Below the pieces are notes generated by a model. The model worked only from the letters and a program-made list of their open reading frames with translations, was not told where the DNA came from and ran no database searches. A DNA stretch of 64,000 bases from contig JAAZVX010000001.1 in NCBI GenBank assembly GCA_018623095.1, positions 7,725 to 71,724 on the forward strand, given 5' to 3'. The DNA comes from Marinobacterium sp. (GTDB lineage: Bacteria > Pseudomonadota > Gammaproteobacteria > Pseudomonadales > Balneatricaceae). Below are positions 21,157-60,469 of the stretch, in pieces; positions within the stretch are counted from its first letter, which is position 1, and every line of letters starts with the position of its first letter. The position numbers and the translations under genes are program-made.

Positions 21157-22830
21157 TTACTGACCCATCTGCTGTTTGATAAGGTCACCGATAGTCGTTG
21201 GACCAGCAGTTTCAACTTCAGCGTTCTGTACGGCTTTAAGAGCAGCTTTCTCTTCAGCTTGATCTTTCGCACGGATAGAGAAGGTGATAACGCGGTTGCG
21301 ACGATCAACACCTACAATCTTACCTTCAACGCTGTCGCCAACGTTTAGAGCAGTTGTAGCGTCTTCGATGCGCTCTGCAGCGATGTCAGATGCTTTAAGA
21401 ACAGCTTCGATACCTTCAGCAAGTTCAACAGAAGCAGCGCGTGGCTCAACTGCTGTAACAGTACCGGTAACGATTGCGCCTTTCTCGTGGCCCGCTAGGA
21501 ACTCAGAGAATGGATCGCTTTCTAGCTGTTTAACGCCAAGAGAGATACGCTCTTTCTCTGCGTCAATAGACAGGATAACTGCTTCAACTTCGTCGCCTTT
21601 CTTGTAGTCGCGAAGTGCAGCTTCAGCATCAGCTTCCCAAGTGATGTCTGACATGTGTACTAGGCCGTCTAGATCGTTGTCTAGACCAACGAAGATACCG
21701 AAGTCAGTGATCGTCTTGATTGTGCCAGATACTTTATCGCCTGCAGCGTACTGCTCAGAGAATGCAGCCCATGGGTTAGTAGTACACTGTTTGATACCCA
21801 ATGAGATACGACGACGCTCTTCATCAACGTCTAGAACCATAACTTCTACAGCATCACCAACCTGAACGATTTTAGATGGGTGGATGTTTTTGTTAGTCCA
21901 AGACATTTCAGAAACGTGTACTAGACCTTCTACACCATCTTCTAGAGATGCGAAACAGCCGTAATCAGTTAGGTTTGTAACCTTACCTGATACACGAGTA
22001 CCTGCTGGGTAACGGTTCTTGATCGCTTCCCATGGATCTTCAGATAGCTGCTTAAGACCTAGAGAGATACGACCGCTCTCTTTGTCGAATTTGATGATCT
22101 TAACGTCGATCTCATCACCTGGAGTTAGCATTTCGCTTGGGTGAGAGATACGTTTCCACGCCATGTCAGTGATGTGTAGAAGACCGTCAACGCCGCCAAG
22201 GTCGATGAACGCACCGTAGTTAGTAAGGTTTTTAACGTAACCTTTAACTGCTTGGCCTTCTTCAAGATCAGCAAGGATCTCATCGCGCTGTGCGCTGTTA
22301 GCTTCTTGAAGAACTGCGCGGCGAGAAACAACAACGTTGTTACGCTTCTGATCAAGTTTGATCAGTTTGAATTCAAGTTCTTTGCCTTCTAGGTGATCAA
22401 CGTCACGTACTGGGCGAACGTCTACCAATGAACCTGGTAGGAAGCCCTGGATGTTGTTGACGTTTACAGTGAAACCACCTTTAACTTTGCCAGAGATGTA
22501 ACCTTTTACGATCTCTTCCGCTTCAAACTTAGTCTGAAGAACTTCCCATGCTTCTGCACGTTTCGCTTTCTCGCGAGAAAGTTTAGTTTCACCGAAACCG
22601 TCTTCTACAGCTTCTAGTGCAACTTTAACGTCGTCACCAATGTTGATTTCAAGTTCATTCGCATCGTTAAGGAACTGAGAGCGTGGAATAACCGCTTCAG
22701 ACTTAAGACCAGCGTTAACAGTTACCCAATCAGCATCGATATCAACAACAGTACCAGTTACTAGGGTACCTGGAGTCATCGCAAGTTCTTGGAGGGATTC
22801 TTCAAACAGTTCAGCAAAGCTTTCGCTCAT
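21157..22830 (-). CDS. rpsA: 30S ribosomal protein S1, copy A (stand-alone locus)
   Basis: [13 protein letters not shown]-terminus, six S1 repeats ([43 protein letters not shown]), 557 aa, strong high-expression codon bias. Confidence 0.97.
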
Positions 22831-22994
22831 GAAAGTGTCCTATTTTGGGTGCCAGAGGGTGGCACACTAGCCTATGACATCAGCTCCATAGGGTCGGTTC
22901 ATCGTCATCTCCGATCGCTTGCTTGGCTGATGGATGCAAGGGTGCGGAGTTATAAAGAGGGCGAAATTATACAGAAGTGTGAGGGGCGTGCAAA
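22831..22994 (-). promoter_or_regulatory. promoter and structured 5' leader of rpsA copy A
   Basis: Minus strand: TTGCAC/TTTGCA, 16-17 bp spacer, TG-TATAAT (22966-22971), GC-rich discriminator; leader hairpins at 22871-22892 (cctatg/catagg) and 22849-22865 (gtgcca/tggcac). Confidence 0.7.
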
Positions 22995-23021
22995 GCGGAA
23001 TTGTTGTTTTTTTGACCAGTC

Positions 23022-25073
23022 TCAGCCAGCTAGCCGAGACTGATCCTCTTCAAAGAACATCTCGATCATATCGATACTCAGCTCGCTCGCTTCACGAAGC
23101 ACTGCTTCACTGTCAGGATCTTTGATCTCTTCACCCGCTGTGACTTCAGTCAGGAGTTCATCAAGCGATTTAACGGGTTGTTCTCCTTTAGCCATGCGAC
23201 GTTGATTCTCTAGATCAAGTTGATCTTGCTCCATTTGATCTCGCTGAGCTTTTAACCGCTCTTCATTGAGTGGTAACCACTGCATCGATTTTTGTTCGTT
23301 GATCAATGCGATTGTATCGCGCATGTGTTGGAAGTCTGGATCGTTTTGCGTTCTTTGACTGTGGCGGTTTTGCAGTTCAGGTACCCAACGATCAAGCGAA
23401 GAGTAGCTGCCATAGCGAACAGGTCTGACTTTATCCCAAGGTAGGGCAAAGTCGAGGGCGCTTTCACCAATTTCGGTTTGATCAAACATCGATGGAAACT
23501 CAATGTCTGGAGCTACGCCTTGGTGCTGAGTACTTTCACCAGAGATGCGGTAGAACTTAGCAGTTGTGAACTTCAACTGACCGTGGCGCAGAGCTTGCAG
23601 CGTTTGCACAGTCCCTTTCCCGAACGTCCGACTACCAACAACTAAACCTCGGCGGTAGTCCTGTATCGCACCGGCAAAGATCTCTGAAGCGGACGCACTT
23701 AGGCGATCGATCACAACGGTTAACGGCCCGGTCCATGTGGTCTCCGGATTGTAGTCACCTAGAACATCGACTCGACCTTCGAGATCACGAATCTGAACAG
23801 TAGGACCGCGGCTTATAAATAGCCCAACCAACTCGTTTGCTTCGCGCAGTGAGCCACCACCATTTTCACGCAGGTCAACAACCAGTGCATCAACTCCTTG
23901 ATTCTTCAGGTCCTCGATAAGAACTGCGACATCACGTGTGGTGCTTCGGTAATCTTTTTCCCCTTTTCTAAGGGCAGCAAAATCGATATAGAAAGTTGGA
24001 ATATCGATGATGCCGACTTTATAGATGGCGCCATCGCGTTCAACCTCCATGACTCTAGATTTAGCAGCTTGCTCTTCTAGCTTCACACGCTGACGTTCTA
24101 GTTTAACGATCTTTCGTGTGCTTTTATCGGCCGATGTGGAAGGAATAATTTCTAAACGCACGACGGATCCTTTAGGACCGCGGATCCTATCAACAACATC
24201 ATCTAGACGCATGCCGACCACATCCTCAATTTCACCGTCGTTATCTTGTCCGACGCCCACAATCAAATCGGCCGGTTTAAGTTGGCCACTTTTATCAGCC
24301 GGTCCTGCCGGTACTAGGCTGACAATTTTCGTGAACTCATCCTCGCTTTGGAGCACCGCGCCGATCCCTTCAAGTGATAGGCTCATGTTGATCTCGAAGT
24401 TCTCAGATGTTGCTGGTGAGAAGTAGGCCGTATGAGGATCGTAAAGACGCGCTAACACATTGGCAAACGATTGAAAGATATCTTCATTGTTAGTCTGCAA
24501 AGCACGATTTAGTTGTGATTCGTAACGTTTGATCAACGTCTCTTTGGCTTCTTCGACACTCTTATCAGAAAGTTTTAGATTTAAAACAGCACTTTTAAGG
24601 CGCAACGCCCAGTACTGATCTTGTTCGCCCTTAGATTGAAACCAAGGCTTCTCTTCGCGACTGATCGGAAGTCTGTCGTCGAGAGTGAAATCAAATGTAT
24701 GATCCGATTTGAGACGATCGATCAGCTGCTCAGTACGCTCTTGGAATCGCGTTAAAAAAAGCTCATAGGCAGCATATGCGAAGGTTAGATTTCCAGAGCG
24801 CATATCATCGTCTAGGGCACGCTTATGGTGAGCTAGCGAGTCGATATCACTCTGCAGTAGATAACTTCTGGTTGGATCGATAGCGTCAAAGTAGTTATTA
24901 AAGAGTGTTTCTGACAGTTCATCGTCGACGGCCTGTTCACGGTAGTGGTGAGATTCCAACCCCGCGACAAGCGACTGAATGGCATTCGAGTGGACGGCCT
25001 CAGGCTTAAGGGAGGCCTGTACACCTGTCGCTATCGTTAATGATAAAACCAAAAAGAGCTGTAACGCTCGCAT
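23022..25073 (-). CDS. prc: carboxy-terminal processing protease Prc (tail-specific protease)
   Basis: DPHTAYFSP, GIGAVL PDZ motif, DLRENGGGSL, SASASEIFAGAIQDY (catalytic Ser), TFGKGTVQ (catalytic Lys). The start is placed at MRALQL with a signal peptide. Confidence 0.93.
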   Translation of the reverse strand: MRALQLFLVLSLTIATGVQASLKPEAVHSNAIQSLVAGLESHHYREQAVDDELSETLFNNYFDAIDPTRSYLLQSDIDSLAHHKRALDDDMRSGNLTFAYAAYELFLTRFQERTEQLIDRLKSDHTFDFTLDDRLPISREEKPWFQSKGEQDQYWALRLKSAVLNLKLSDKSVEEAKETLIKRYESQLNRALQTNNEDIFQSFANVLARLYDPHTAYFSPATSENFEINMSLSLEGIGAVLQSEDEFTKIVSLVPAGPADKSGQLKPADLIVGVGQDNDGEIEDVVGMRLDDVVDRIRGPKGSVVRLEIIPSTSADKSTRKIVKLERQRVKLEEQAAKSRVMEVERDGAIYKVGIIDIPTFYIDFAALRKGEKDYRSTTRDVAVLIEDLKNQGVDALVVDLRENGGGSLREANELVGLFISRGPTVQIRDLEGRVDVLGDYNPETTWTGPLTVVIDRLSASASEIFAGAIQDYRRGLVVGSRTFGKGTVQTLQALRHGQLKFTTAKFYRISGESTQHQGVAPDIEFPSMFDQTEIGESALDFALPWDKVRPVRYGSYSSLDRWVPELQNRHSQRTQNDPDFQHMRDTIALINEQKSMQWLPLNEERLKAQRDQMEQDQLDLENQRRMAKGEQPVKSLDELLTEVTAGEEIKDPDSEAVLREASELSIDMIEMFFEEDQSRLAG

Positions 25074-25183
25074 GCCAACACTCCAAAACCGCAGTAAAAA
25101 TAGAAAATCTGATAAAGAGCAGTTTAGGCCAGCTCTCCTCATGATGTAAAATAACTTTCTTTTACTACGCGGGAGTCGTTGCG

Positions 25184-25720
25184 GTGGTTTTGCGAATTGC
25201 GGGTTTAGCGATTGTTTCTTTCATTTTGGTTGCTTGTGACAGCGGATCTAACCGTGATGAAATCGAGGATAAAGAGGCTTTTCGAAAAGAGTTGATTGAT
25301 AAAGCACTGAACGATGATACTCGCAAGGCGGGCGAGGCGTTTCTTGCTGAAAATAGTCAGAAGTCAGGTGTGATTGTTCGTAAGTCTGGACTTCAGTACC
25401 GCGTCATTGTTGAAGGTCAGGGTAAGCAGCCAGAGTATGACAGTGTTGTGCTGGTTGAATACGAAGGTCGACGTGTCGATGGCGGTGTCTTCGATAAGAC
25501 CGAAGCCGGAAAGCCGATCAAATTCCCGCTCAATCAGGTGATTAAGGGTTGGCGAGAAGGCTTGGGGTTAATGAAAGAGGGTGCGCAATATGAGCTCTAC
25601 ATTCCTGCTGATTTGGCCTACGGCGCGCGTAGTCCCAGTCGTGAAATTCCACCCAATTCAGCTTTGATATTTGATGTTAGGTTAATAGAAGTACTTGAGA
25701 AGGGTGCGGAGAAAGAGTGA
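25184..25720 (+). CDS. FKBP-type peptidyl-prolyl cis-trans isomerase (probable lipoprotein)
   Basis: Lipobox LVAC; [43 protein letters not shown]. Confidence 0.92.
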
Positions 25721-27000
25721 TGGAACAAGAGCGTTTTAACCAAGATCTACTGACCTTTTTAGCGGATAGTCCGACTCCCTTTCATGCCACTCAACAGATG
25801 GCTGAGCGATTAAGTCAGGCAGGTTTTATCGAACTGTTTGAAAGTGAAGCGTGGAATCCAGTCGCTGGCGAGAGTTACTTCATTCGTCGTAATGGCTCGT
25901 CGATCATTGCTTGGCGTCATGCCGCAAACATGGATGCAGGTTTTCGAATGGTGGGTGCTCATACCGACTCACCCTGTCTTCGAGTTAAACCGACACCAGA
26001 ACTGTACAGACAAAACTACCTTCAACTCGGCGTTGAAGTCTATGGTGGCGCTCTATTAAATCCTTGGTTTGATCGAGACTTGTCGCTAGCGGGACGAGTG
26101 ACTTTCCGTCAAGCTGACGGTTCTCTAGACACTGCTCTGATTGACTTCAAAGAGGCTATCGCGACGATCCCAAGCCTCGCTATTCACTTAGACCGTGAGG
26201 CCAACAAAGATCGCACGGTTAACCCGCAATTGCACCTGCCCGTGCTATTAGGGCAAGCAGAACAGAAGCAGGATTTCAGAGCGCTGCTCAAATCTAAGCT
26301 GCTGGAGCAGGGTGTGACTGAGGTTGTGGATGTCCTAGATTACGAGCTCTCTTTCTACGACGTTCAAGCGCCTGCAATGGTGGGATTGAACAGAGAGTTT
26401 ATCGCTTCGGCCCGTCTGGATAACCTGTTGAGCTGTTTCATTGGTTTACAGTCTCTTATTAACAGTGATGGTCAACAGGCTGCAGTACTGGTCTGTACGG
26501 ATCATGAAGAGGTTGGCAGTGCGAGTGCCTGTGGTGCTCAGGGCCCGATGTTGGCTCAGTGGCTAGAGCGTCTCTTGCCGAACAACGAAGAGCGCAACCG
26601 TGTGATCAGCCGTTCTATGATGATCTCAGCTGATAACGCCCACGGCGTGCACCCCAATTACGCCGATAAACACGATCAGAATCATGGCCCACTGATTAAC
26701 GCGGGACCTGTTATCAAAATTAATGCTAATCAGCGCTACGCCACCAATAGTGAAACCAGTGCAACGTTCCGTGCCATTGCACAAGATGTCAATGTGCCTG
26801 TGCAGAGCTTTGTAGTTCGTACAGACATGGGGTGCGGCAGCACTATTGGTCCAATTACGGCATCAGAGGTTGGTATCCGCACAGTGGATATCGGTTGCCC
26901 ACAATTTGGTATGCACTCAATTCGTGAGCTGTGCGGCAGTAATGATGCGCACTCTCTCTACCTGATTCTGCAACACTATTACGATAAAGCCAGAGTTTAA
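25717..27000 (+). CDS. M18 family aminopeptidase (aspartyl aminopeptidase-like)
   Basis: [53 protein letters not shown]. Confidence 0.93.
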
Positions 27001-27012
27001 GAGGGTTAAGAC

Positions 27013-27423
27013 GTGTTACAAACGGTTCAAGAGCTTAATGATTTTCTAACCAACCACTTTCCGCAAGGTGAAGGCTTTGGTGCCGTTGAAGAGGCGGGTG
27101 ATGGTTGGGTATTGATGCGTTTAACGGTTGAAGATAGCCATTTGCGTCCCGGTGGTACGGTCTCAGGGCCCACTATGATGGGGATGGCGGATGTGGCTAT
27201 CTGGTCCGCGTTGCAAACCAAGATTGGTCCTTCGCCGATGACGGTGACTGGTAACCTAAATATCAATTTCTTAAGTAAGCCCAAGCCCGTTGATATGTTG
27301 GCACGTGCGCGGGTACTTCGTGTTGGTCGCAGAAACGGGGTCGGTGAGTGTTACATCTACTCAGGTGATGAAGATTCGATGGTGGCTCACGTAACGGCAA
27401 CCTATTCAATACCGGCTAAGTAA
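27013..27423 (+). CDS. PaaI family hot-dog thioesterase
   Basis: LRPGGTVSGPTMMGMAD, VTGNLNINFL, ARVLRVGRR. Confidence 0.88.
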   Translation: MLQTVQELNDFLTNHFPQGEGFGAVEEAGDGWVLMRLTVEDSHLRPGGTVSGPTMMGMADVAIWSALQTKIGPSPMTVTGNLNINFLSKPKPVDMLARARVLRVGRRNGVGECYIYSGDEDSMVAHVTATYSIPAK

Positions 27424-27459
27424 GGCCCAAGTAATATTTGCGACAAGGAATAGTCGATC

Positions 27460-29631
27460 ATGGAAATTAAAGTTAACTATCTCGATAACTTGCGCCTAGA
27501 GGCAAAGTTCGATGACTTCACCGTGATCGCTGATCAGCCGGTACGCTACAAAGGGGACGGATCCGCCCCCGGTCCGTTCGACTATTTTTTGGCCTCATCA
27601 GCCTTATGTGCTGCCTATTTTGTAAAGGTTTACTGCGAAGCGCGGGGGATCTCTACCGATAATATCCGTCTTGCTCAGAACAACATTGTCGATCCCGAGA
27701 ACCGCTATAAACAGATCTTTAAGATCAGTGTAGAGCTGCCAGAGGATCTTAGTGACAAAGACCGAACGGGTATTCTGCGTTCTATTGAGCGTTGTACCGT
27801 GAAAAAAGTGGTGCAAGAGGGGCCTGAGTTTCAGATAGAGGTGGTTGAAAGCCTTGATGAAGATGCACAAGCTCTATTGGCGGTCGCCACAGACAGTGAA
27901 ACCTTCATCGAGGGTAAAGACGCTCCACTTGAACAGACCATCGCGAAGATGACGCAGATTCTGGCAGACTTGGGTATGAAAATTGAGGTTGCCTCTTGGC
28001 GAAATATCGTTCCCAATGTTTGGTCACTGCACATTCGTGATGCGGCTTCCCCTATGTGTTTTACCAATGGTAAAGGTGCCACGAAAGAGGCTGCACTGGC
28101 GTCGGCTTTAGGCGAGTTTTTAGAGCGTCTCTCCTGCAACTTTTTCTACAACGATCAATACTTTGGCCAAGAGCTGGCCGAAGCAGAGTTTGTTCATCGC
28201 CCAGACGAGCGTTGGTTTGAGCTGACTGAAGAGGATGAGATTCCAGAGGGGTTGCTAGACGACTATACACTGGAGATCTACGACCCTGATCAGGACCTGA
28301 GTGGCTCAAATTTAATCGACACGAACTCTGGAAATGAGGAGCGAGGTATCTGCGCTCTGCCATTCCAGCGTCGCTCCGATGGTGAAACCATCTACTTCCC
28401 CTCTAACCTGATCGAGAACCTCTTTTTAAGTAACGGTATGAGTGCCGGCAACACCCTTGAAGAGGCTCAGGTGCAGTGTCTCTCTGAGATCTTTGAACGT
28501 GCCGTTAAACGTCAGATCCTTGAGCAGGAGATTGCACTTCCGGATGTTCCTCTTAAGGTTCTTGAACGCTGGCCAGGCATCGTTGAGGGAATTCAAGCAC
28601 TTGAAGAGCAAGGCTTCCCGGTATTGGTCAAGGATGCCTCTTTGGGCGGTCAGTTCCCAGTCGCTTGCGTCACTCTAATGAACCCTAAAACGGGTGGGGT
28701 ATTTGCTTCGTTCGGTGCCCACCCCAGCCAGCATGTCGCGATTGAAAGAAGTCTGACAGAATTGCTGCAAGGCCGTAGCTTTGAGGGCTTAAACGACCTG
28801 CCACCACCGACCTTTAATTCACACGAGCTGACAGAACCTAATAACTTTGTTGAGCACTTTATCGACTCAAGTGGTGTTGTGAGCTGGCGCTTCTTTAGTG
28901 ACGCGTTTGATTACGATTTTGTGGATTGGGATTTCTCGGGTTCCAATACAGAGGAGGCTGAAACCCTGTTTGGTATTCTGGAATCGATGGGCAAAGAGTC
29001 CTATCAAGCGGTCTATGATGATCTGGGTGTACCAGCGGTTAGAATATTGGTCCCTGACTATTCAGAGGTATACCCCGTTGAAGATCTGATTTGGGATAAC
29101 ACCAATAAATCACTGGAGTTTCGCGAGGCGATTCTCTGTCTGCATGAGCTGTGTGATGAGGATTTAGCAGAGTTGCTGGTTCGTTTAGAGGAGAGCGAGC
29201 TGGATAACTACACCGATATCCGCACATTGATCGGCATTGAGTTTGACGAGAATAGCGTCTGGGGACAGCTCACCATACTTGAGCTGAAACTGATGATTCA
29301 CTTGGCCTTGGGTCAGTTACCTCAGGCTAAAGAGTTGGTCGAGGCCTTTTTACAGTACAACGATAACACCCTAGACCGAGTATTGTTCTACCGTGCAATG
29401 GATGCTGTCATTGAGGTGGAGTTAAATTCAGAAATGGCTCTTGAGCACTACCTCAACAACTTTACTCGAATGTTCGGTAAAGAGAGAGTCGAGGCTGTGG
29501 TTGGGTCTGTGAATGGATCGATTCGTTTTTATGGACTTGAGTCAGTGGGTATGGAACTTACCGGTTTAGAACGCCATCAACGCCTGATTCAGAGTTATCA
29601 GAAATTGCATCAATGGCGTGCCTCTAAATAG
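27460..29631 (+). CDS. OsmC-domain / YcaO-domain fusion protein
   Basis: N-terminal OsmC-like domain (GDGSAPGPFDYFLASSALC ... IERCTV), then a YcaO domain (GKGATKEAALASALGEFLER, SNGMSAGNTLEEA, EIFER, SFGAHP). Confidence 0.9.
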   Translation: MEIKVNYLDNLRLEAKFDDFTVIADQPVRYKGDGSAPGPFDYFLASSALCAAYFVKVYCEARGISTDNIRLAQNNIVDPENRYKQIFKISVELPEDLSDKDRTGILRSIERCTVKKVVQEGPEFQIEVVESLDEDAQALLAVATDSETFIEGKDAPLEQTIAKMTQILADLGMKIEVASWRNIVPNVWSLHIRDAASPMCFTNGKGATKEAALASALGEFLERLSCNFFYNDQYFGQELAEAEFVHRPDERWFELTEEDEIPEGLLDDYTLEIYDPDQDLSGSNLIDTNSGNEERGICALPFQRRSDGETIYFPSNLIENLFLSNGMSAGNTLEEAQVQCLSEIFERAVKRQILEQEIALPDVPLKVLERWPGIVEGIQALEEQGFPVLVKDASLGGQFPVACVTLMNPKTGGVFASFGAHPSQHVAIERSLTELLQGRSFEGLNDLPPPTFNSHELTEPNNFVEHFIDSSGVVSWRFFSDAFDYDFVDWDFSGSNTEEAETLFGILESMGKESYQAVYDDLGVPAVRILVPDYSEVYPVEDLIWDNTNKSLEFREAILCLHELCDEDLAELLVRLEESELDNYTDIRTLIGIEFDENSVWGQLTILELKLMIHLALGQLPQAKELVEAFLQYNDNTLDRVLFYRAMDAVIEVELNSEMALEHYLNNFTRMFGKERVEAVVGSVNGSIRFYGLESVGMELTGLERHQRLIQSYQKLHQWRASK

Positions 29632-29640
29632 TTAGTGCTC

Positions 29641-30513: not shown

Positions 30514-30515
30514 GA

Positions 30516-31502: not shown

Positions 31503-31607
31503 GAAAAATCCTTAAAAATGAGTCAATTTGTTGAGAAGATTAACAAGTTAGTGCAGACGAGTGAACTCGAAAAGGGGAATTAGCTATTCGAAAAAAGAAA
31601 AGCATTA

Positions 31608-31632
31608 GGGTGCCAGCTAGACGTTGGCACCC
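31608..31632 (-). terminator. stem-loop downstream of tpx
   Basis: gggtgcca/tggcaccc; the A-rich run at 31590-31601 gives a U-rich tract on the minus strand. Confidence 0.55.
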
Positions 31633-31642
31633 CTAGGAGGCA

Positions 31643-32143: not shown

Positions 32144-32219
32144 ATTGAAGCCTCGCAATAAAAGGTTATTAGTTTGTAGTAGTCTCCTTACGTGCAAGGC
32201 CTGGGGTTAGATCCTCAGC

Positions 32220-32423: not shown

Positions 32424-32483
32424 GATTTTTCCTCTGTGTGATTGGATAACTTTAATGTAGAACAAAGATTGAAAAATGCTCGA

Positions 32484-50044: not shown

Positions 50045-50139
50045 TTAGGCTACCAAAGTGGCAATTCATTAATGGTTAATGTTGCTAGTTTATCACCCCT
50101 TTGAATAAGGCCCAAAAGCTGATTTGATTCAATTGTTTG

Positions 50140-50148
50140 TGTTATGAT
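50140..50148 (+). promoter_or_regulatory. candidate extended -10 promoter of gyrA
   Basis: TG-T-TATGAT about 60 bp upstream of the start codon. Confidence 0.45.
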
Positions 50149-50209
50149 GTGGACTTTATTTTTGCACCGGGTGGCGGTGCGAACAGAAGACTAAAAGGAA
50201 CGCCAGATA

Positions 50210-52861
50210 ATGGGTGACCTAACCAAAGAAGTTCTTCCGGTTAATATCGAAGACGAACTGAAGCAATCCTACCTAGATTACGCTATGAGCGTGATCGTCG
50301 GCCGTGCACTCCCTGATGCTCGTGACGGCCTTAAACCGGTTCACCGTCGCGTGCTGTTTGCGATGAATGAGCTAGGCAATGATTGGAACAAACCCTACAA
50401 AAAATCTGCTCGTGTGGTCGGTGATGTAATCGGTAAATACCACCCTCACGGCGACAGCGCGGTTTACGACACGATCGTTCGTATGGCGCAAGACTTCTCT
50501 ATGCGTTACATGCTGGTGGATGGTCAGGGTAACTTTGGTTCGGTTGATGGTGACTCTGCTGCGGCAATGCGTTACACCGAGATACGAATGAAGAAGATTT
50601 CACATGAACTTCTTTCGGATCTGGATAAAGAGACCGTTGATTACGTTGACAACTACGACGGTACTGAGAAAATTCCTGCGGTTCTTCCAACGCGCGTACC
50701 CAACCTGTTAGTGAATGGCTCGGCCGGTATCGCGGTAGGTATGGCAACGAACATTCCTCCTCACAACTTGGGTGAAGTGGTTCGTGGTTGTCTAGCACTG
50801 ATTGAAAATCCAGATATCACCATTGATGAGCTGCTTGAGTTCATTCCGGGGCCAGACTTCCCAACGGGCGGGATCATCAATGGCCGTGCCGGCATTCTGC
50901 AAGCGTACCGTACAGGCCGTGGTCGTATCTATGTGCGAGCAAAACACCATGTGGAAGATCACCCTAAAAACGGTCGTCCGATGCTGGTCATCACCGAGAT
51001 CCCATACCAGCTCAACAAAGCTCGTTTGATCGAAAAGATCGCAGATCTTGTTAAAGAGAAAAAGATCGAGGGCATCAGCGAGCTGCGTGACGAGTCTGAC
51101 AAAGATGGTATGCGTATTGTCATTGAGCTGCGTCGCGGTGAAGTGCCAGATGTCATCATCAATAACCTATTTGCCCAGACATCGCTGCAGAGCGTGTTTG
51201 GTATCAATATGGTCGCCCTCGTTGATGGTCAGCCACGTCTGTTGGATCTTAAGAGCGCGCTTGAGTGTTTCGTTCGCCACCGTCGTGAAGTGGTGACACG
51301 CCGTACTGTCTACTTACTTCGTAAAGCACGTGAACGTGGCCACATCTTGGAAGGTTTGGCGATAGCACTGGCAAATATCGATCCAGTTATTGAATTGATT
51401 AAGAAATCTCCAACCCCTGCAGAGGCAAAAGAGGCACTGATCGCGACTGCTTGGGCACCGGGTCAAGTGTTGGATATGCTCGAGCGTGCAGGTGAAGATG
51501 CTTGTCGTCCTGAAGGCCTAGAAGCTCAGTATGGTCTGCGTGATAACAGCTACTACCTATCACCTGCTCAAGCGCAAGCGATTCTTGAGTTGCGCCTACA
51601 CCGTCTAACCGGTCTAGAGCACGAAAAACTGATCGAAGAGTACCGCGATCTCATTGAGCGCATCGCGGAGCTACTGGAGATTCTTGGTTCTCACGTCCGT
51701 TTGATGGAAGTGATCACTGAAGAGCTGAATCAGCTTGTAGCTGAGTATGATGATGAACGACGCACTGAGATTACAGCGTCCTCGCACGATTTGACCATCG
51801 CAGACCTGATCACTGAAGAGGAGATGGTCGTCACTATCTCTCACGGTGGTTATGCGAAGACTCAACCGCTTGAGGCCTACCAAGCTCAGCGTCGCGGCGG
51901 TAAAGGTAAGTCGGCGACAGCAATGAAAGACGAGGACTTCGTTGAGCATCTGCTAGTGACGAACAGTCACGACACGATCCTATGTTTTACTAACTTCGGT
52001 AAGGTCTACTGGTTGCGTGTGTTTGAGATTCCTCAGGCAAGCCGTACGGCTCGTGGCCGACCTATGGTTAATATTTTGCCGTTGGCTGAGGGTGAGCGCA
52101 TCAGCACGATTCTCCCCGTTAAAGAGTTTGATGAAGAGCGTTGCATCTTCATGGCGACCGCTAATGGTACGGTTAAGAAGACTCGTCTGTCGGCCTTCTC
52201 ACGCCCACGCAGCACGGGACTAATTGCTTTAGACATCGTTGAGGGGGATCGTCTAATCGGTGCATCACTTACCAGCGGTAACGACGATGTCATGCTAGTG
52301 ACCTCTGCAGGTAAGGCGATTCGATTCAACGAGACTGATGTTCGTGAGATGGGTCGTACCGCTCGCGGTGTTCGTGGTGTTAAGTTGGATGATGTCGCTA
52401 AAGTCATCTCATTGATGGTGCCTCAAGAGGGTGGTCAGGTGTTGACGGCCTCTGAGAAGGGTTATGGCAAAAAGACAGCGATCTCAGAGTTCCCAATTCG
52501 TGGTCGCGGCGGCATGGGTGTTATTGCCATGCAGTGCACTGATCGTAACGGAGCATTGGCTGGTGCTGTTCAGGTATTCGATGGCGATGACATCATGCTG
52601 ATCAGTGATCTCGGTACCATGGTTCGTACTCGTACTTCAGAGATCTCATCGCTTGGTCGAAACACCCAGGGTGTTCGCCTAATTCGTGTTGCGGATGACG
52701 AGACTCTTATCGGTCTTGCACGAATCGAAGAGCCTGAAGAGGACGAAGAGAGTGCTGAGAGTTCTGATGTGACTGAAGAGAGTAATTCAACTGGAGCTAC
52801 CGCGTCAGAAGAGAGTCCGCAAGAGGAGTCTGATGATTCCGAAGGCAGTGAAGAAGAGTAA
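50210..52861 (+). CDS. gyrA: DNA gyrase subunit A
   Basis: [10 protein letters not shown], catalytic AAMRYTE, GyrA-box QRRGGKG, acidic C-terminal tail. Confidence 0.98.
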
Positions 52862-52884
52862 TTGAGGCTCGGAACCCCTACGAC

Positions 52885-53964
52885 ATGAATCGTCTATTTA
52901 ACTTCAGCGCTGGACCTGCAGCGCTGCCAACTGAAGTACTGGAAATCGCCCAATCTGAAATGCTGGATTGGCATGCCAAAGGCCTCTCTATTATGGAGAT
53001 GAGCCATCGAAGCGCTGAGTTTGTGAGCGTGGCTGAAGGTGCAGAGCAGGATCTGCGTGAACTGATGAACATCGGTGACGACTACGCCGTTATGTTCCTT
53101 CAAGGGGGCGCAACCAGTCAGTTTGGTATGGTGCCCATGAACCTTTCACAAGGTGGCAAGGTCTCATACATTAATACGGGTGTTTGGTCTAAAAAGGCGA
53201 TCAAAGAGGCACAGCGTTTTGCCGATGTCTCTATCGCTGCATCGACAGAATCATCAAGCTTTAGTGAAGCACCTTTGCAGTCAGATCTCACTATTGAGCC
53301 GACGGCTAAGTACCTTCATTACACCACCAACGAAACCATTGGTGGGGTTCAATTTGACTACATTCCTGATGCGGGTAATGTGCCACTGGTTGCCGACATG
53401 TCGTCAGACATCTTATCGGCGCCGATCGATGTCTCTCGTTTTGGGTTGATCTATGCAGGAGCGCAGAAGAACATCGGTCCTGCCGGATTAACGGTTGTCA
53501 TCGCACGTAAAGATCTATTAGGAAACCCATTAAGCTCAGCGCCGACTATGTATGATTATGCTGTTCATGCGGCCAATGGTTCGATGCACAACACACCACC
53601 GACACTGGCTTGGTATCTATCGGGACTGGTGTTTCAGTGGATTAAGCGCCAAGGTGGATTGTCGGCAATGGCGGAATTGAATCATCGCAAAGCCTCTAAG
53701 CTCTATGCGGCTATTGATGGAAGTGACTTTTTTGCCAACCCAGTTGCTGTTCGCAACCGTTCCATTATGAATGTTCCCTTTACGTTGGCTGACTCCGCTC
53801 TGGACAAGGCATTCTTGGCTGAATCTGAAGAGGCGGGATTGTTGAATCTTAAAGGGCATCGCTCTGTCGGTGGTATGCGCGCAAGTATCTATAACGCCGT
53901 TCCTGAACAAGCGGTGGATGCTCTGATCGACTTTATGGCTGATTTCGAGAAGCGTCGAGGCTAA
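52885..53964 (+). CDS. serC: 3-phosphoserine/phosphohydroxythreonine aminotransferase
   Basis: FNFSAGPAALP, NETIGG, DMSS, GAQKNIGPAG, HRSVGGMRAS. Confidence 0.97.
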   Translation: MNRLFNFSAGPAALPTEVLEIAQSEMLDWHAKGLSIMEMSHRSAEFVSVAEGAEQDLRELMNIGDDYAVMFLQGGATSQFGMVPMNLSQGGKVSYINTGVWSKKAIKEAQRFADVSIAASTESSSFSEAPLQSDLTIEPTAKYLHYTTNETIGGVQFDYIPDAGNVPLVADMSSDILSAPIDVSRFGLIYAGAQKNIGPAGLTVVIARKDLLGNPLSSAPTMYDYAVHAANGSMHNTPPTLAWYLSGLVFQWIKRQGGLSAMAELNHRKASKLYAAIDGSDFFANPVAVRNRSIMNVPFTLADSALDKAFLAESEEAGLLNLKGHRSVGGMRASIYNAVPEQAVDALIDFMADFEKRRG

Positions 53965-53966
53965 TA

Positions 53967-54737
53967 ATGGGTCAGCAGAATCTCTATCAAGGGTTGACTC
54001 AAGATGAGGCACTGGCACAGGTGCGTGATGAGATCGATCAGATTGATCAAGAGATTCATTCCCTGTTAAATAAACGTGCTGAGTGCGCTCAGCGAGTCGC
54101 TGATATTAAGCACAGTTTTGGTGCTGACTCCCCCATTTTCTATCGACCTGAACGTGAGGCGCAGGTGCTTCGCAAAGCGATGCAGCGTAATGAGGGGCCG
54201 CTTCCTGATCAAGAAATTGCCCGTCTCTTCAGAGAGGTGATGTCAGTCTGTTTGGCGCATGAGCACAGAATGAATGTTGGTTTCATTCAAAGCCCAGGAT
54301 TGGATGCTGAGCAAGCCGCTCTTAAACAGTTTGGCCATTCAGTAGAGCCTATTGCGTTTCCTAAGGCGACTGAAGCGCTGCTAAGCCTTGCAGAAGAGGG
54401 GTTGCACTACGCGGTTATCTCCGTGAATTCACTCTCTGAGGTCTTGTCTCTTCTGATCACTCATCAGCTTAATGTGGTCGGTGAAGTGAATGTGCATGGC
54501 GATGAAGCCTATTTGGTACTGGGGCATCAAGCGGTTTCCGCTTCCGGAAATGATAAAACAGCTGTGATTATTGAAGGGTCTGAATCAACGGTAGCTGACT
54601 ATTCTCGTGCCCTTAGTGATGGAAACCTAACCTATTTAGAGCTTGATGGCGCAGTGTCGGTTGATGGCGTTCAATCTCTGGTTGGACCTGAGCTCAATTT
54701 TCACTACCTGGGACTCTTTCCCAAAGCGGTTTTTTAG
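53967..54737 (+). CDS. pheA: PheA-derived protein: intact chorismate mutase with an internally deleted, degenerate prephenate dehydratase/ACT region
   Basis: AroQ domain RDEIDQID..RA..K..YRPEREAQVL is intact. The PDT part is only about 160 aa and lacks the PxENS and TRF motifs. C-terminal LGxFPKAV is retained. Confidence 0.85.
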   Translation: MGQQNLYQGLTQDEALAQVRDEIDQIDQEIHSLLNKRAECAQRVADIKHSFGADSPIFYRPEREAQVLRKAMQRNEGPLPDQEIARLFREVMSVCLAHEHRMNVGFIQSPGLDAEQAALKQFGHSVEPIAFPKATEALLSLAEEGLHYAVISVNSLSEVLSLLITHQLNVVGEVNVHGDEAYLVLGHQAVSASGNDKTAVIIEGSESTVADYSRALSDGNLTYLELDGAVSVDGVQSLVGPELNFHYLGLFPKAVF

Positions 54738-54748
54738 GGAATTTAATT

Positions 54749-55849
54749 GTGACTATTGATCAAAAAACATTCGCAGTGTCGGGTGTTCAAAAGTTGACAC
54801 CTTACCAACCCGGTAAACCGATTGAAGAATTAGAGCGTGAACTGGGTATCAGTGAGTCGATTAAGCTTGCTAGTAATGAAAATCCCTTGGGCCCAAGCCC
54901 TATCGCCCTTAAAGCCGCTACCGACAGCTTGCAAGATGCGACACTCTATCCTGATGCGTCTGGCACCGAGCTCAAGCGTAGATTAAACACTGAATATGGT
55001 CTGGCAGAAGATCGTTTGACCTTGGGTAACGGATCAAATGACCTGTTGGAGTTGATCGCCAGAGTATTTGTGCGCCCCGAAGATGAGGTGATTTACTCGG
55101 AGTTCGCCTTCATCGTTTATCCGCTGGTGGCTCAAGCCTGTTGTGCGGTGTCGGTGGTAACTCCTGCGAAAGAGTATGGTCACGATTTGGATGCTATGGC
55201 TAATGCGATCACTGATAAGACGCGCCTTATCTTCCTAGCCAACCCCAACAACCCGACCGGAACAGTCTTCTCAGACGATCAGTTTCGCGCGTTTATGGCT
55301 CGTGTTCCTGAGCAGGTCATGGTGATTCTAGATGAGGCTTACACTGAGTATTTGACGGCTCAAAACATGCCAAACGGACTGCAGCTGGCTGATGAGTTCG
55401 ATAACTTAATCGTCACGCGAACCTTCTCTAAGGCTTGGGGCTTAGCTGGCCTTCGTTGCGGTTTCGCTTATGCTTCGGTAGCAGTAACCGATCTTCTTAA
55501 TCGTGTTCGCCAGCCCTTCAATGTCAGTTTGCCCGCTTTAGCGGCGGCACAGGCGGTACTGTCCGACTCTGAATACCTCAAGCGCAGCCAAGAGGTTAAC
55601 CAGCAGGGTCTTGAACAGATGTACGAAGGGCTTACTCAACTGGGTGTTTCGTTTGTACCAAGTCAGGGTAATTTTGTGCTGATCGACTTGGGACAGCCAG
55701 CCATGCCGATCTACCAGTCGATGCTATTGATGGGGGTTATTACTCGTCCAGTCGGTAACTACGGCCTCCCGAACCATCTAAGAGTCAGTATCGGCCTTGC
55801 TCATGAAAATGAGCGTTTCTTAAAAGCCTTAGCGGAGGCGATCGCTTAA
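54749..55849 (+). CDS. hisC: histidinol-phosphate / aromatic aminotransferase
   Basis: YQPGKPIEEL, KLASNENP, GNGSND, ANPNNPTG, DEAY, RTFSKAWGLAGLR. Confidence 0.95.
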   Translation: MTIDQKTFAVSGVQKLTPYQPGKPIEELERELGISESIKLASNENPLGPSPIALKAATDSLQDATLYPDASGTELKRRLNTEYGLAEDRLTLGNGSNDLLELIARVFVRPEDEVIYSEFAFIVYPLVAQACCAVSVVTPAKEYGHDLDAMANAITDKTRLIFLANPNNPTGTVFSDDQFRAFMARVPEQVMVILDEAYTEYLTAQNMPNGLQLADEFDNLIVTRTFSKAWGLAGLRCGFAYASVAVTDLLNRVRQPFNVSLPALAAAQAVLSDSEYLKRSQEVNQQGLEQMYEGLTQLGVSFVPSQGNFVLIDLGQPAMPIYQSMLLMGVITRPVGNYGLPNHLRVSIGLAHENERFLKALAEAIA

Positions 55850-58059
55850 TGGCGTTCAAAGCTGAACGTGTTTTAGTCGTCGGACTGGGTCTGATTGGCG
55901 GCTCTTTTGCACGTGCAGCAAAAGAGTTGGTCAGCGTTAAGCAGGTGGTTGGCTTTGATCTCAACGAGGAAGAGTGTGATCTGGCGGTTGCTCTTAACGT
56001 GGTCGATCGTATCGCAACCGATCTAGAGGTGGCGGTCAAAGAGTCTGATCTAATTCTATTAGCCGTTCCCGTCAAAGCGATAGAGAGAGTGATGCAACAG
56101 ATCGCTCCATGGCTAAAGCCTGAAGCGATACTAACCGACGTTGGCAGTACCAAACTCAATATCCTTCAGGCAGCAAAAGGTATTTGGCCTGAAGGACTAC
56201 CAGCTGGGTTTATACCTGGCCACCCAATAGCGGGTGCTGAGAAGAGCGGTGTCTCGGCATCGCAGGCGGATCTTTTTAATCATAAAAAAGTTATTTTGAC
56301 GCCCCCCGAGGGAGCCTCTGATCAGGCTACATTGACGTTGGCTCGTGTCTGGCAGTCGATTGGTGCTGAAGTGGTTCAAATGGAACCTAAGCGCCATGAT
56401 CAGGTATTAGCGGCAACCAGTCATCTACCTCATCTATTAGCCTTCTCGCTAGTCGATACGCTCGCGGCGGAGGCAGAGAGTACTGATATATTTCGCTATG
56501 CGGCGGGCGGTTTTAGAGACTTCACCCGCATTGCGGCAAGTGATCCAACCATGTGGCATGACGTCTGTTTCGCCAATCGTGAACAGCTGTTAGAGCAGAT
56601 TGATCGCTTTATGGCGGGCGTACAAGATTTAAGATCAGCCGTCGATCAGGGCGATAGCCAGAGTCTGTTGGGGATTTTTACTCGAGCTAAGGCATCTCGT
56701 GAGCATTTCTCATTGGTACTAGAGCGTGCTGGGTATGCGGAGCTCAGGGGCGACGCCATTGATACTCTTGTTTCATCTCCAACGGCTACTTTGAACGGTG
56801 AATTGCGAGTGCCCGGTGATCGCTCTATCTCGCAACGTGCCATCATGTTAGCGGCTATTGCTGAGGGTGTGTCTGAAATTGATGGCCTGATTGAGAGTGA
56901 AGATACTCTAGCAACCATTCAAATTTTTCGTGATATGGGCGTGGTAATAGAGGGACCGCACCAGGGGCGCGTTAGGGTATTTGGTGTCGGCCTAAACGGG
57001 CTGCAAGCCCCGTCTGCGCCTCTCTATTTTGGTAGTTCGATGACCTCATTGCGAATGTTGTTAGGTCTTCTGTCCGCTCAGTCTTTTGATGTGACGTTAA
57101 CCGGCAGTGAGCTGCTGTCTAAGATCACTTTACAGGAGATTATTGACCCTCTTACTCAGATGGGCGCTTCCATTGAGAGTAATAAAGGATCGCTTCCGAT
57201 CACTATCAAGGGCGGCCAAACCTTTAAGTCCATCACCTATGCGCCGAGTCATGCCAGTGCTCAGATAAAAGGCGCATTGCTGCTGGCAGCCATGACTGCG
57301 GGCATTGAGTTAGAGGTCTATGAACCCAACACTACGCGTGATCATACTGAGCGACTGTTGGCTGCCTTCGGGGTTCAGTTGGATAGAGAGGGACGTCGAC
57401 TGTTTATCGAGTCAGGTGTTTCGCTAACAGCCTGTTCAGTTCAAGTGCCCGCCGATCTGAGTTTTGCTTTTGCGTTTGCGGTAGGGGCTCTTTTGCAAAA
57501 AGAGTCCAATTTGATTATCGATAATGTCAGTGCTAATCCCACTCGTTTGCACTCGTTGCGCCTGCTTGAACGCATGGGTGCGCAGATAACGCTGAATAAT
57601 AATCGCCATGCTGGTGGTGAGCCAGTTGCTGATCTCAAGGTGAAAGCGTCGGAGCTATTGGGTATTGAGTGCCTATCATCGGAGTTGGTCTCGGTTGGAG
57701 ATGATCTTCCGCTTCTGTTGTTGGCGATGGTATCTGCTCAGAGTGAATCGACTATTTTAGGAATCGATCGAATTCCTGAGCGACAAAGGGCCCTATTTAA
57801 GACGACGGTTGATGAATTAATAAAAGCCGGTGCCGACATCTCAATGTCACAGAGTGATGTCACTATTTCGCCGGTTTCGCAGTGGCACTCGTGTGAGTTA
57901 GAGGCCGCAGAACACCCTGCACTGGCGTTAGCTCTGCTGATGTTAAGTTTACGTTTTGATCAGCCCATTCGAATTAACGGATGTCGAGCGATCATTACCG
58001 CCTTTCCTGAACTGATTGATCAGGCGCGAAGGGTCGGTATTAAATTGATTGAGGAGTAG
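55849..58059 (+). CDS. TyrA-AroA fusion: intact prephenate dehydrogenase plus degenerate EPSP synthase domain
   Basis: TyrA motifs are intact (GLGLIGGS, GHPIAGAEKSG, SHLPH, GGFRDFTRIAASDP). The AroA scaffold is recognisable but catalytic motifs are altered (PGDRS, GSSMT, SKITL, EHP). Confidence 0.88.
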   Translation: MAFKAERVLVVGLGLIGGSFARAAKELVSVKQVVGFDLNEEECDLAVALNVVDRIATDLEVAVKESDLILLAVPVKAIERVMQQIAPWLKPEAILTDVGSTKLNILQAAKGIWPEGLPAGFIPGHPIAGAEKSGVSASQADLFNHKKVILTPPEGASDQATLTLARVWQSIGAEVVQMEPKRHDQVLAATSHLPHLLAFSLVDTLAAEAESTDIFRYAAGGFRDFTRIAASDPTMWHDVCFANREQLLEQIDRFMAGVQDLRSAVDQGDSQSLLGIFTRAKASREHFSLVLERAGYAELRGDAIDTLVSSPTATLNGELRVPGDRSISQRAIMLAAIAEGVSEIDGLIESEDTLATIQIFRDMGVVIEGPHQGRVRVFGVGLNGLQAPSAPLYFGSSMTSLRMLLGLLSAQSFDVTLTGSELLSKITLQEIIDPLTQMGASIESNKGSLPITIKGGQTFKSITYAPSHASAQIKGALLLAAMTAGIELEVYEPNTTRDHTERLLAAFGVQLDREGRRLFIESGVSLTACSVQVPADLSFAFAFAVGALLQKESNLIIDNVSANPTRLHSLRLLERMGAQITLNNNRHAGGEPVADLKVKASELLGIECLSSELVSVGDDLPLLLLAMVSAQSESTILGIDRIPERQRALFKTTVDELIKAGADISMSQSDVTISPVSQWHSCELEAAEHPALALALLMLSLRFDQPIRINGCRAIITAFPELIDQARRVGIKLIEE

Positions 58060-58062
58060 TGG

Positions 58063-58764
58063 ATGGATCCACTCAATAGTGAAAATTCATGTCCTATTAT
58101 TACCGTTGATGGGCCAAGCGGTTCGGGTAAAGGCACTATCTGTCGTTTACTTTCTCAAGAGCTAGGTTGGAGCTTGTTGGACAGCGGTGCTCTTTACCGT
58201 CTTACGGCGTTAGCTGCGATACACCATGGTGTCGATCTTAATGATGAAGAGGCGCTTCAGGTTTTGGCTGAGCATCTCGATGTGCGCTTTGTCGCGTCAG
58301 AACAGGACGATGAAGTGGTCATTTTGCTCGAAGGTGAAGAGGTGACTCATGCCATTCGAGCTGAGCAGGTTGGTAACGATGCATCCAAAGTGGCTGCTAT
58401 TTCGTCAGTCCGCTCTGCTCTGTTAAATCGCCAGCGCGATTTTGCGCAGTTACCCGGGTTAGTTGCTGATGGCAGAGATATGGGGACTGTCGTATTTCCA
58501 AAGGCACCTTTGAAGATCTATCTAGATGCTTCCGCTGAAGTTCGAGCCGATCGTCGTTATAAGCAGTTGATAGATAAGGGACTGAGTGCTAGCCTTGAAA
58601 TAATATTAGAAGATATTCGTGCACGAGATGATCGTGATATGAACCGTTCGGTTGCGCCGCTTCGACCAGCCGATGATGCCGTTATTCTTGATAGTACTTC
58701 TATGTCTATCGAAGAAGTTTTGAGAACTGTGCTTGAACAAGCACGCCACAAAGGGTTGCGTTAG
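58063..58764 (+). CDS. cmk: cytidylate kinase
   Basis: [34 protein letters not shown]. Confidence 0.97.
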
Positions 58765-58789
58765 CGCCCCGTAAACTGAGGCTTAGACC

Positions 58790-60469
58790 ATGAGCGAAAG
58801 CTTTGCAGATCTGTTTGAAGAGAGTCTTGAACAGGTCAACATGAAACCAGGTTCCATCATTACTGGAACCGTAGTAGGTATTGAAAACGATTTTGTTGTT
58901 GTTACAGCAGGTCTTAAGTCAGATGGGGTCATTCCTATCGATCAGTTTAAAAATGCTGCAGGTGAACTAGAGGTCGCTGTCGGTGATGAGGTGCAAGTGG
59001 CACTTGAATCATTGGAAGATGGTTTCGGTGAAACCAAGTTATCTCGTGAGCGTGCGAAACGTGCAGAGGCATGGGCGGTTCTTGCAAAAGCTTACGAAGC
59101 TGGCGAAACAGTGACCGGTCGTATCAGTGGTCGTGTTCGAGGTGGTCTAACGGTCATGGTAAATGGCATAAACGCCTTCTTACCAGGTTCTTTGGTGGAT
59201 ACACGCCCACTGCGCGACACTAGTCATCTTGATGATCAAGACCTAGAGCTTAAAATCGTTAAGCTCGATGAGAAAAGTAACAACATTGTTGTGTCACGTC
59301 GTGCCATTCTTGAAGAGGCGAACAGCGAAGAGCGTGAGAAGCTGCTTGAACAGATGGAAGAGGGTGCAACCTTTAAAGGCGTTGTTAAGAACCTTACCGA
59401 TTACGGTGCTTTCATCGATCTAGGTGGTATCGATGGTCTCCTTCATATTACTGATATCTCTTGGAAACGTATCAAACACCCAAGCGAAATGCTGACTGTG
59501 GGTGATGAGATCGACGTTAAAGTTCTTCGCTACGATCAAGAGCGTAAGCGCGTATCCCTAGGCATGAAGCAGCTAGCGGCTGATCCATGGACGACAGCAA
59601 TCGAGAACTATTCAGTTGGTCAACGCGTTATGGCTAAGGTGACTAAGCTTGCTGACTACGGCTGTTTTGCTCAAATTGGTGAGGGTGTTGAAGGTCTAGT
59701 CCATGTCTCTGAAATGGATTGGACAAATCGCAACATTCATCCATCTAAGGTGGTTCAGGTTGGTGATGAAGTTGAAGTTCAGATTCTAGACATTGATCAA
59801 CAACGTCGTCGTATCTCGCTGGGTATCAAACAGTGTCGCGAAAACCCATGGAATGCTTTTGCATCTTCAACGAACAAGGGTGACAAAGTGTCTGGTACTG
59901 TCCGCTCAATCACAGACTTCGGTATCTTCATCGGTTTAGAGGGTGGTGTTGATGGTCTTGTGCATCTGTCTGATATCTCTTGGGATGAGCCAGGTGAAGA
60001 GGCTGTTAAGCGTTTCAATAAAGGCGATATCGTGGAAGCGGTCATCCAACAAGTGGATGCTGAGCGCGAACGTATCTCTTTAAGCATTAAAGCACTGGCC
60101 TCTGATCCATTCAGTAGCTTTGTAGAAGCGAACGGTAAGGGTTCAAAAGTTTCCGGTACAGTTGTCGCAGTGGATGCTCGTCAGGCTGAAATTGAAGTGG
60201 CTGATGGTCTGAACGCTATTTTGAAAGTGGCTGAGTTTGCCCGTGAGCGAACTGAAGATCTCTCGGCAGAGCTCTCTGTAGGTGACAGCGTTGAAGCGAT
60301 TGTGATCAATGTTGATCGTCGTAATCGTTCGATCTTCTTGTCAATCAAAGCGATTGAAGCCAAAGAGCAGCAAGAGGCACTTAAAGCGGTTCAGTCAGCT
60401 CCAAGCGATATGGATGCAGGCGCAACAACCATTGGTGATCTCATCAAAGAGCAGATGGGTAAAAAATAG
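58790..60469 (+). CDS. rpsA: 30S ribosomal protein S1, copy B (canonical cmk-rpsA-ihfB locus)
   Basis: [12 protein letters not shown], six S1 repeats, 559 aa, intact ORF; only 25 nt downstream of cmk. Confidence 0.96.

Follow-up and report, generated by a model that had tools for sequence, protein, structure and literature searches.

Two full-length, diverged ribosomal protein S1 genes of opposite regulatory design in Marinobacterium and its relatives

Gram-negative bacteria rely on the ribosomal protein bS1 to capture mRNAs and unfold them on the ribosome; it is normally encoded by a single, essential and self-regulated gene, rpsA. More than one S1-related protein is found in some other lineages: cyanobacteria and plastids possess two homologues, Rps1a and Rps1b, and Bacillus has the non-essential homologue YpfD, these proteins having three or four S1 domains. 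In Francisella, paralogues of bS21 create heterogeneous ribosomes, as is supported experimentally. The closest known concept is that of the alternative ribosomal proteins (AltRP), i.e. paralogues of bL31 (A/B), bL36, bS18 and uS14 (C+/C-), including those of mycobacteria (PMC7431078). In E. coli, bS1 represses its own mRNA, which lacks a Shine-Dalgarno (SD) sequence, by competing with the ribosome; the autorepression is abolished if the weak SD is made canonical, and domain 6 of the protein is needed for the repressor activity (PMC10931766). The present study concerns a 64,000-nucleotide stretch of a Marinobacterium sp. genome (assembly GCA_018623095.1, contig JAAZVX010000001.1), hereafter the window, which carries two full-length rpsA genes, designated copy A and copy B. 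The pair is strongly asymmetric, and the idea of two equal specialists is not supported.

In comparison with the canonical, autogenously controlled rpsA of E. coli, embedded in the order cmk-rpsA-ihfB, both copies likewise encode full-length six-domain bS1 proteins with the S2-anchoring helix. Copy B shares with it the gene neighbourhood and copy A the type of leader, structured and poor in SD. The gene is, however, present twice here, the locus going with B and the leader, promoter and high-expression signature going with A, and in B a canonical SD stands in place of the leader, a configuration that abolishes autorepression in E. coli (PMC10931766). Like the AltRP paralogues, B is a diverged second paralogue under different regulation that may replace the main form on some ribosomes. 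Unlike those under the control of Zur, small zinc-ribbon proteins that are switched when zinc becomes limiting, it is a 60-kDa mRNA-recruiting S1 with a constitutive, operon-embedded expression signature, and no zinc logic is apparent, a search for Zur boxes not having been made. With Rps1a/Rps1b and YpfD the pair has in common the presence of several bS1-related proteins per cell, or of an S1 homologue that is non-essential for translation; A and B differ from them in being complete, collinear, six-domain proteins from a recent family-level duplication. As with bS21 of Francisella, small-subunit paralogues located near the mRNA-binding platform are concerned and a bias in the choice of translated mRNAs is proposed; the protein is a different one, and for the S1 pair any such bias is hypothetical. 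The two genes are as follows:

21157..22830, minus strand: rpsA copy A, probable main bS1, 557 aa, at the derived locus (open reading frame, family model NF004954, codon adaptation, tree, dS)
58790..60469, plus strand: rpsA copy B, probable accessory bS1, 559 aa, at the ancestral locus (open reading frame, NF004954, codon adaptation, dN/dS)

The initial annotation, made from the letters of the window, had placed two rpsA genes of these lengths at these positions, and both open reading frames (ORFs) were found there intact. Aligned by BLASTP, the two proteins are identical at 347 of 558 positions (62%), with 79% positives and a single gap; over residues 1-200 the identities number exactly 126, which is the figure obtained earlier by hand. 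The NCBIfam model NF004954, an rpsA equivalog model for the gammaproteobacterial bS1 with a cut-off of 727 bits, scores 911 bits with A and 895 bits with B, covering positions 1-558 of 560 in each case, and six stretches of the Pfam S1 family PF00575 are found in A and likewise in B. Both proteins align end to end with the E. coli bS1 taken from ribosome structures, A with 806 bits and 67% identity, ungapped over residues 1-541, and B with 762 bits and 63% identity, ungapped over residues 1-536. The motifs cited previously—the helix start MSESFA(E/D), HITDISW, EMSW and the tail TTIGDLIK—are all present in the sequences, and the E. coli forms of the motifs given there agree with these alignments. 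By all sequence criteria applied, A and B are both members of bS1, yet the rule of a single essential copy is broken. A search for contigs encoding the exact copy B protein found no record.

Copies of rpsA were searched for in 60 relatives, comprising 36 genomes of the same family (16 genera) and 24 genomes from other families of the order. Two full-length genes are present in 33 of the 36 family genomes, in 16 genera, with one of these genomes even holding three, and nine of the two-copy members are complete single-contig genomes. A single rpsA is found in all 24 representatives of the other families; a class-wide sample of 200 further Gammaproteobacteria (from about 190 families) yielded 194 genomes with a match, one each, and none with two. 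The view that such a pair is very unusual for the class is thus borne out, two copies being seen in 0/200 class-level genomes and 0/24 sister families. The closest relatives bearing names belong to Marinobacterium, Nitrincola, Neptuniibacter, Amphritea, Motiliproteus and Candidatus (Ca.) Njordibacter, a group taken here to be the GTDB family Nitrincolaceae, and both copies occur in Neptuniibacter sp. PT1, N. marinus ATR 1.1, Marinobacterium lutimaris, M. mangrovicola, M. alkalitolerans and Ca. Njordibacter, with Oceanobacter kriegii, from outside the family, having one. Streamlined family genomes of 2.0-2.4 Mb keep B, too. No report of a duplicated full-length rpsA, either in this family or in Gammaproteobacteria, was found in the literature.

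The asymmetry of the pair is also seen in the sequences surrounding the two genes, the elements of which are given below:

21105..21134, minus strand: intrinsic terminator of copy A, AAAAAGAGCGC-TTCG-GCGCTCTTTTT followed by a T run (read by eye; unlisted by the pattern scanner)
22831..22959, minus strand: leader of copy A, about 130 nt (from sequence)
22838-22842, minus strand: UAGGA in the SD-poor start region AUAGGACACUUUC-AUG of copy A (from sequence)
22849-22865, minus strand: hairpin H3 of the copy A leader
22871-22892, minus strand: hairpin P2 of the copy A leader
22926-22932, minus strand: segment of the copy A leader complementary to the P2 loop
22966..22994, minus strand: promoter-like site of copy A, TTTGCA, 17 nt, TATAAT (10/12 matches), then the G+C-rich discriminator TTCGCCCTC
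58765..58789, plus strand: spacer between cmk and copy B, 25 nt, without a leader (from sequence); SD-like GAGG at 58778-58781

Concerning copy A, different genera share a conserved CTGTATAAT in their upstream sequences, and the start-region motif, kept in nearly all A copies, resembles the rpsA start region of the 23 families outside the family that served as outgroups. The leaders of A and of the outgroups share a hairpin of the form CCnnnn-loop-nnnnGG, the loop of which is complementary to a segment located 30-60 nt upstream; in copy A itself, the P2 loop GCUGAUG is complementary to the upstream CAUCAGC. The two segments covary between genera (CATCAGC/GCTGATG, CATCGGC/GCCGATG, CGTCAGC/GCTGACG and TCGCCAGT/ACTGGCGA), which suggests a pseudoknot or a loop contact in the rpsA leader of this order; leaders with covarying segments are also present in the loci L005-L031 and L115-L184. 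It is worth mentioning that bS1 has been reported to bind pseudoknots with high affinity (PMC10931766). The occurrence of the hairpin together with its upstream complement, according to a motif scan, is the following:

A copies: 33/37 loci
Outgroup rpsA: 13/23 loci
B copies of the genera g13 and g16: 3/3 loci
B copies of the main clade: 1/31 loci, equal to background
Background: 3.7% of random genomic windows and 1.2% of shuffled A leaders

A profile built for nhmmer from the cores of 13 outgroup hairpins gave no match in either the window or the family loci, and no Rfam family matched the rpsA leader at the gathering or E-value threshold.

Concerning copy B, the spacer between cmk and rpsA measures 20-44 nt in most main-clade B loci versus 114-403 nt in the outgroups, and a canonical SD core is present in 25 of the 31 main-clade B loci versus 0/37 for A and 2/23 for the outgroups. 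No promoter-like site was seen directly upstream of copy B. Identical regulation of the two genes, which the initial annotation had named as something that would speak against its proposal, is not what was found, their upstream designs being very different in spacer, leader hairpin and SD. Since a canonical SD abolishes the repression in E. coli, B therefore has the configuration expected to escape S1 feedback. In the basal genera g13 and g16, the B copies (L152, L158, L183) keep the long ancestral leader and score like an outgroup S1, while the A-type copies (L153, L159, L184), being shorter (549-551 aa) and not positioned beside prc, have the stronger codon bias already; this looks like an intermediate stage of a handover between A and B.

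The two genes also evolve at different rates. Across genera, the A-type proteins are 75-93% identical to copy A and the B-type proteins 55-84% to copy B; in within-genus pairs the nonsynonymous divergence (dN) is, for the most part, 2-18 times as high for B as for A, and some genera exhibit very long B branches. The ratio of dN to the synonymous divergence (dS) is nevertheless 0.02-0.10 for A versus 0.02-0.13 for B (where dS is unsaturated), indicating strong purifying selection on both, so that neither copy shows the ratio near 1 that would betray an idle gene. For the window's own genome (G000) compared with the sister species G004, the dN/dS of B is 0.022 and the two B proteins are 97.3% identical, a higher conservation than in eight of the nine genes around it, the exception being ihfB. 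The dS values between the same two genomes are 0.037 for A and 0.64 for B, the latter being typical of neighbours, with 0.40-1.31 for ten neighbouring genes. The dS of copy A thus lies about 17-fold below that of the neighbouring genes; codon selection is the likely cause, with a recent gene-specific sweep or recombination being kept in consideration.

Codon usage was evaluated for the 813 ORFs of at least 250 aa in G000, a metagenome-assembled genome (MAG); the ribosomal-protein cluster of G004 was used as the reference because the MAG is without the rplB cluster. The codon adaptation index (CAI) of copy A, 0.819, is the highest of all 813 ORFs, at an effective number of codons (ENC) of 30.3; copy B reaches a CAI of 0.603, i.e. 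the 94th percentile, and an ENC of 40.2, the median CAI of the genome being 0.429. The ENC is lower in A than in B in all 33 genomes with both copies. It should be noted that no rplB was found in the G000 assembly, from which the S10-spc cluster of ribosomal proteins is therefore probably absent, and that its size is 1.55 Mb versus 2.0-2.4 Mb in the sister species; the MAG, scored as 90% complete, is likely to be less complete than estimated.

At the protein level, the initial annotation had proposed that the divergence is complementary, A being closer to the consensus in domains D2 and D3 and B in D4 and D5. The per-domain counts, made both against E. coli and against the consensus of the 23 outgroup families, do not support it: the identities to the E. 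coli protein for A and B are 0.81/0.67 in D2, 0.74/0.74 in D3, 0.80/0.73 in D4 and 0.68/0.70 in D5, and with respect to the outgroup consensus A is equal or nearer in all S1 domains except for D3 and D5, in which B is nearer by 0.01-0.02. Over the RNA-binding core D3-D5, B is as near to that consensus as A. A weaker form of the claim does hold, namely that A has ten family-wide fixed derived residues where B stays ancestral, seven of them located in D3-D5, including D310S (in EMSW) and I387L; the pattern reads as a burst of change in A followed by freezing. The relaxation of B, for its part, is concentrated in D2, the linkers D3-D4 and D5-D6, D6 and the tail. Its identity to the outgroup consensus is 0.69 in D2 (0.82 for A) and 0.40 in the D3-D4 linker (0.74 for A), and D6 is its least conserved S1 domain, with a between-genus identity of 0.44 compared with 0.68 for A and 0.64 for the outgroups.

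The ribosome anchor has been left untouched by this relaxation. Phe5 and Phe9 are indispensable for binding both to S2 and to the ribosome, with Lys43 contributing a salt bridge to S2 (PMC4288201). The residues F5, F9, K43 and S44 are invariant in all 37 A, 34 B—the very long branches included—and 23 outgroup sequences; the E. coli Asp39 is conserved in none of the three sets. The conservation of the N-terminal helix, 0.73 in B, compares with 0.74-0.76 in the canonical S1. As far as can be judged from sequence, the constancy of the S2 anchor throughout the 34 B proteins speaks in favour of a B that binds the ribosome.

As for the origin of the pair, the neighbouring genes in the window are the following:

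23022..25142, minus strand: prc-like tail-specific protease gene, upstream neighbour of copy A (ORF)
55849..58059, plus strand: tyrA/aroA fusion gene, ending 3 nt before cmk (ORF)
58063..58764, plus strand: cmk, ending 25 nt before copy B (ORF)
60518..60820, plus strand: ihfB, downstream of copy B, in the ancestral arrangement cmk-rpsA-ihfB (ORF)

The order cmk-rpsA-ihfB for B and the stand-alone position of A were found as previously described: B lies in the longer string tyrA/aroA-cmk-rpsA-ihfB-lapA-lapB, in which, according to ORF coordinates and synteny, it is a distal gene of a tightly packed tyrA/aroA-cmk string, and A is situated between a prc-like and a fasciclin-like gene. The former we take to be prc from a reading of the protein. 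At 23014-23045 (minus strand), arms of about 15 bp make up an almost perfect hairpin, reading GACCAGTCTCGGCTAGCTGGCTGAGACTGGTC on the plus strand, which overlaps the stop of prc and is followed by an A run; it had been flagged solely by chance-level microRNA matches in Rfam. Elsewhere in the window, there is a bacterial small signal recognition particle RNA (2231-2327, plus strand, Rfam RF00169, 76 bits), an ordinary feature.

The synteny cmk-rpsA-ihfB is found in all outgroups and all B loci, and no A copy is located there; in the family as a whole, A adjoins prc in 28 of 37 cases and lies elsewhere in the others. The presence of this order in every outgroup identifies the locus of B as the ancestral one and A as the copy that moved. 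In the maximum-likelihood tree (LG+C20) of 94 S1 proteins (37 A, 34 B and 23 outgroup), the S1s of the family, A and B together, are set apart from the 23 outgroup families with a support of 99/82 and in 98% of bootstrap trees, and the A-type sequences form one clade with a support of 100/99. The results show an ancient, family-wide duplication in which the single rpsA of the ancestor was copied together with its promoter and leader, and one duplication at the base of the family would be the simplest history. That either copy came from another of the sampled families finds no support. Gene conversion between A and B was considered and rejected, since the A-B identity within the genome (62%) is not above that between genomes (55-65%). 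An idea of gene dosage, with A nearer to the replication origin, found no consistent positions in the nine complete genomes, the origins of which were not located.

The losses point in one direction. A is present in 36 of 36 family genomes, and all three single-copy genomes retain it; we infer solely from its never having been lost that A is essential. B is cleanly gone from G028 and G033, where cmk adjoins ihfB, and in G016 (genus g9) the space between cmk and ihfB is occupied by what is left of rpsA-B, about 1.1 kb of frameshifted and internally deleted sequence (L189:4831-5958), i.e. the decay of an accessory copy caught under way. The genome with three rpsA genes, G034 of the genus g14 (L178, L179, L180), has an A-type gene with weak bias (ENC 48) at the prc locus, a second A-type gene with strong bias (ENC 33) elsewhere, and B; its congener G021 has just the second A type and B. 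In g14, the pattern of duplication, relocation and take-over may have occurred a second time.

Based on the above results, we consider it reasonably probable that A is the housekeeping S1, growth-rate-controlled and autorepressed, and that B is an accessory S1 outside the feedback, probably still docking on S2 and dispensable in some lineages. Copy A kept, at its new locus, a promoter with a G+C-rich discriminator and a structured SD-poor leader and has its own terminator; copy B stayed between cmk and ihfB and, in most genera, lost the leader and gained a canonical SD. B would be co-transcribed with cmk and translated via its own SD, outside the S1 feedback loop; the relaxed D6 fits a B freed from repressing its own mRNA, because D6 is needed for the autorepression in E. 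coli. By docking on the 30S subunit by way of S2, of which it is probably still capable, B would provide a second kind of S1, either at times when A is no longer synthesised or with RNA handling that differs to some degree. The data suggest that the main role of an essential gene moved from its ancestral locus to the duplicate. A further step would be the existence of two kinds of ribosome differing in their S1, A dominating during fast growth and the share of B, made from an SD-driven message of the aromatic-amino-acid/cmk operon that is free of feedback, growing when a stringent-type promoter and autorepression stop A, so that the recruitment and unfolding of mRNAs change; this we regard as a tentative and rather unlikely extension. 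The two ideas voiced in the initial annotation, S1-based ribosome heterogeneity and a non-ribosomal paralogue, have the standing of hypotheses.

Several observations weigh against this assignment of roles. In g13 and g16 it is B, at 0.75 against 0.69 for A, that lies nearer to the outgroup consensus, and the division of labour in these genera may differ. B has 21 relaxed sites and only two fixed changes, both conservative, a pattern more in keeping with relaxed constraint than with a new specificity, and its three independent losses or pseudogenisations show that its contribution is dispensable. The free tree places the sequences of the cmk locus (B) as paraphyletic around A; a single B clade is not rejected by the approximately unbiased test (p=0.24), and the exact history—either a single duplication at the base or a later one combined with transfer among members of the family—is not settled. 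Codon bias and dS are proxies for expression only. The homology of the leaders rests on a motif scan of our own devising, albeit with genomic and shuffled controls; a 41-position covariance model from 16 outgroup hairpins (R1, 0.6 bits per position) gave matches at chance level only in the window and missed the A leader, both this model and the nhmmer profile being too poor in information because the stems covary.

One of the other explanations is that the pair is an artefact of assembly or binning, either a chimeric contig or contamination by a second organism. The window's genome invites the suspicion, being a fragmented MAG of 148 contigs and 1.55 Mb without the rplB cluster, of which the window belongs to contig 15; A and B, however, share this one contig, the base composition of which is even along its length, and G004 has the same pair in the same orientation and with the same spacing of 37.7 kb. 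Given this arrangement, and since type strains as well as nine complete single-contig genomes have both copies, the chimera feared in the initial annotation is already refuted, and we attach practically no probability to it. A horizontal acquisition of one copy from another lineage, instead of a duplication within the family, might be read from the position of A at a non-ancestral locus and from its identity of 66-71% to outgroup S1 compared with only 62% to B. The greater similarity of A to the outgroups is, however, explained by the faster rate of B, the leader of A has the same architecture as the family's own ancestral locus, and A and B are together split from the 23 sampled outgroup families (99/82, 98% of bootstrap trees), which leaves such an origin very unlikely.

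Two further alternatives concern the role of B. It could be mainly an extraribosomal RNA chaperone or regulator made of S1 domains, acting in mRNA stability, transcription or trans-translation, with A alone on the ribosome. Functions of bS1 off the ribosome are documented (PMC10931766), the strongest relaxation of B affects D2, which is one of the two ribosome-proximal domains, and the D3-D4 linker, and its expression is uncoupled from a promoter and leader of the ribosomal-protein type; loss of F5, F9, K43 and S44 would be expected once docking on S2 had been given up, though, and these are invariant in 34/34 B sequences, the N-terminal helix being as conserved as in canonical S1, so that we hold this role to be improbable. 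That B is simply an equivalent spare copy under weak dosage selection, slowly heading to loss without any specialisation, would agree with its three independent losses or pseudogenisations, the 21 relaxed sites against two conservative fixed changes, and the faster protein evolution with very long branches in some genera. Such a copy is hard to reconcile with a dN/dS of 0.02-0.13, with a conservation exceeding that of eight of nine neighbours in this lineage, with its retention in 33 of 36 genomes and 16 genera, including the streamlined ones of 2.0-2.4 Mb, and with codon adaptation at the 94th percentile; the coordinated loss of the leader and gain of the SD moreover point to selected expression, and we consider the spare copy quite improbable.

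The family, which is abundant in polar and bloom-associated seawater, stably holds two diverged S1 proteins of opposite regulatory design and in this respect represents a natural experiment. It bears on the question of whether ribosome heterogeneity at the step of mRNA entry is possible in bacteria, on the roles of the autoregulatory leader and domain 6, with the changes in B mirroring the mutagenesis performed in E. coli, and on how an essential, highly expressed gene changes its chromosomal home via duplication and handover of the role. Cultured type strains of Neptuniibacter and Marinobacterium carry both genes, so direct testing is possible. Two kinds of ribosome differing in their S1, if they exist, would be the first specialised-ribosome system built on a paralogue of the mRNA-selecting protein itself.

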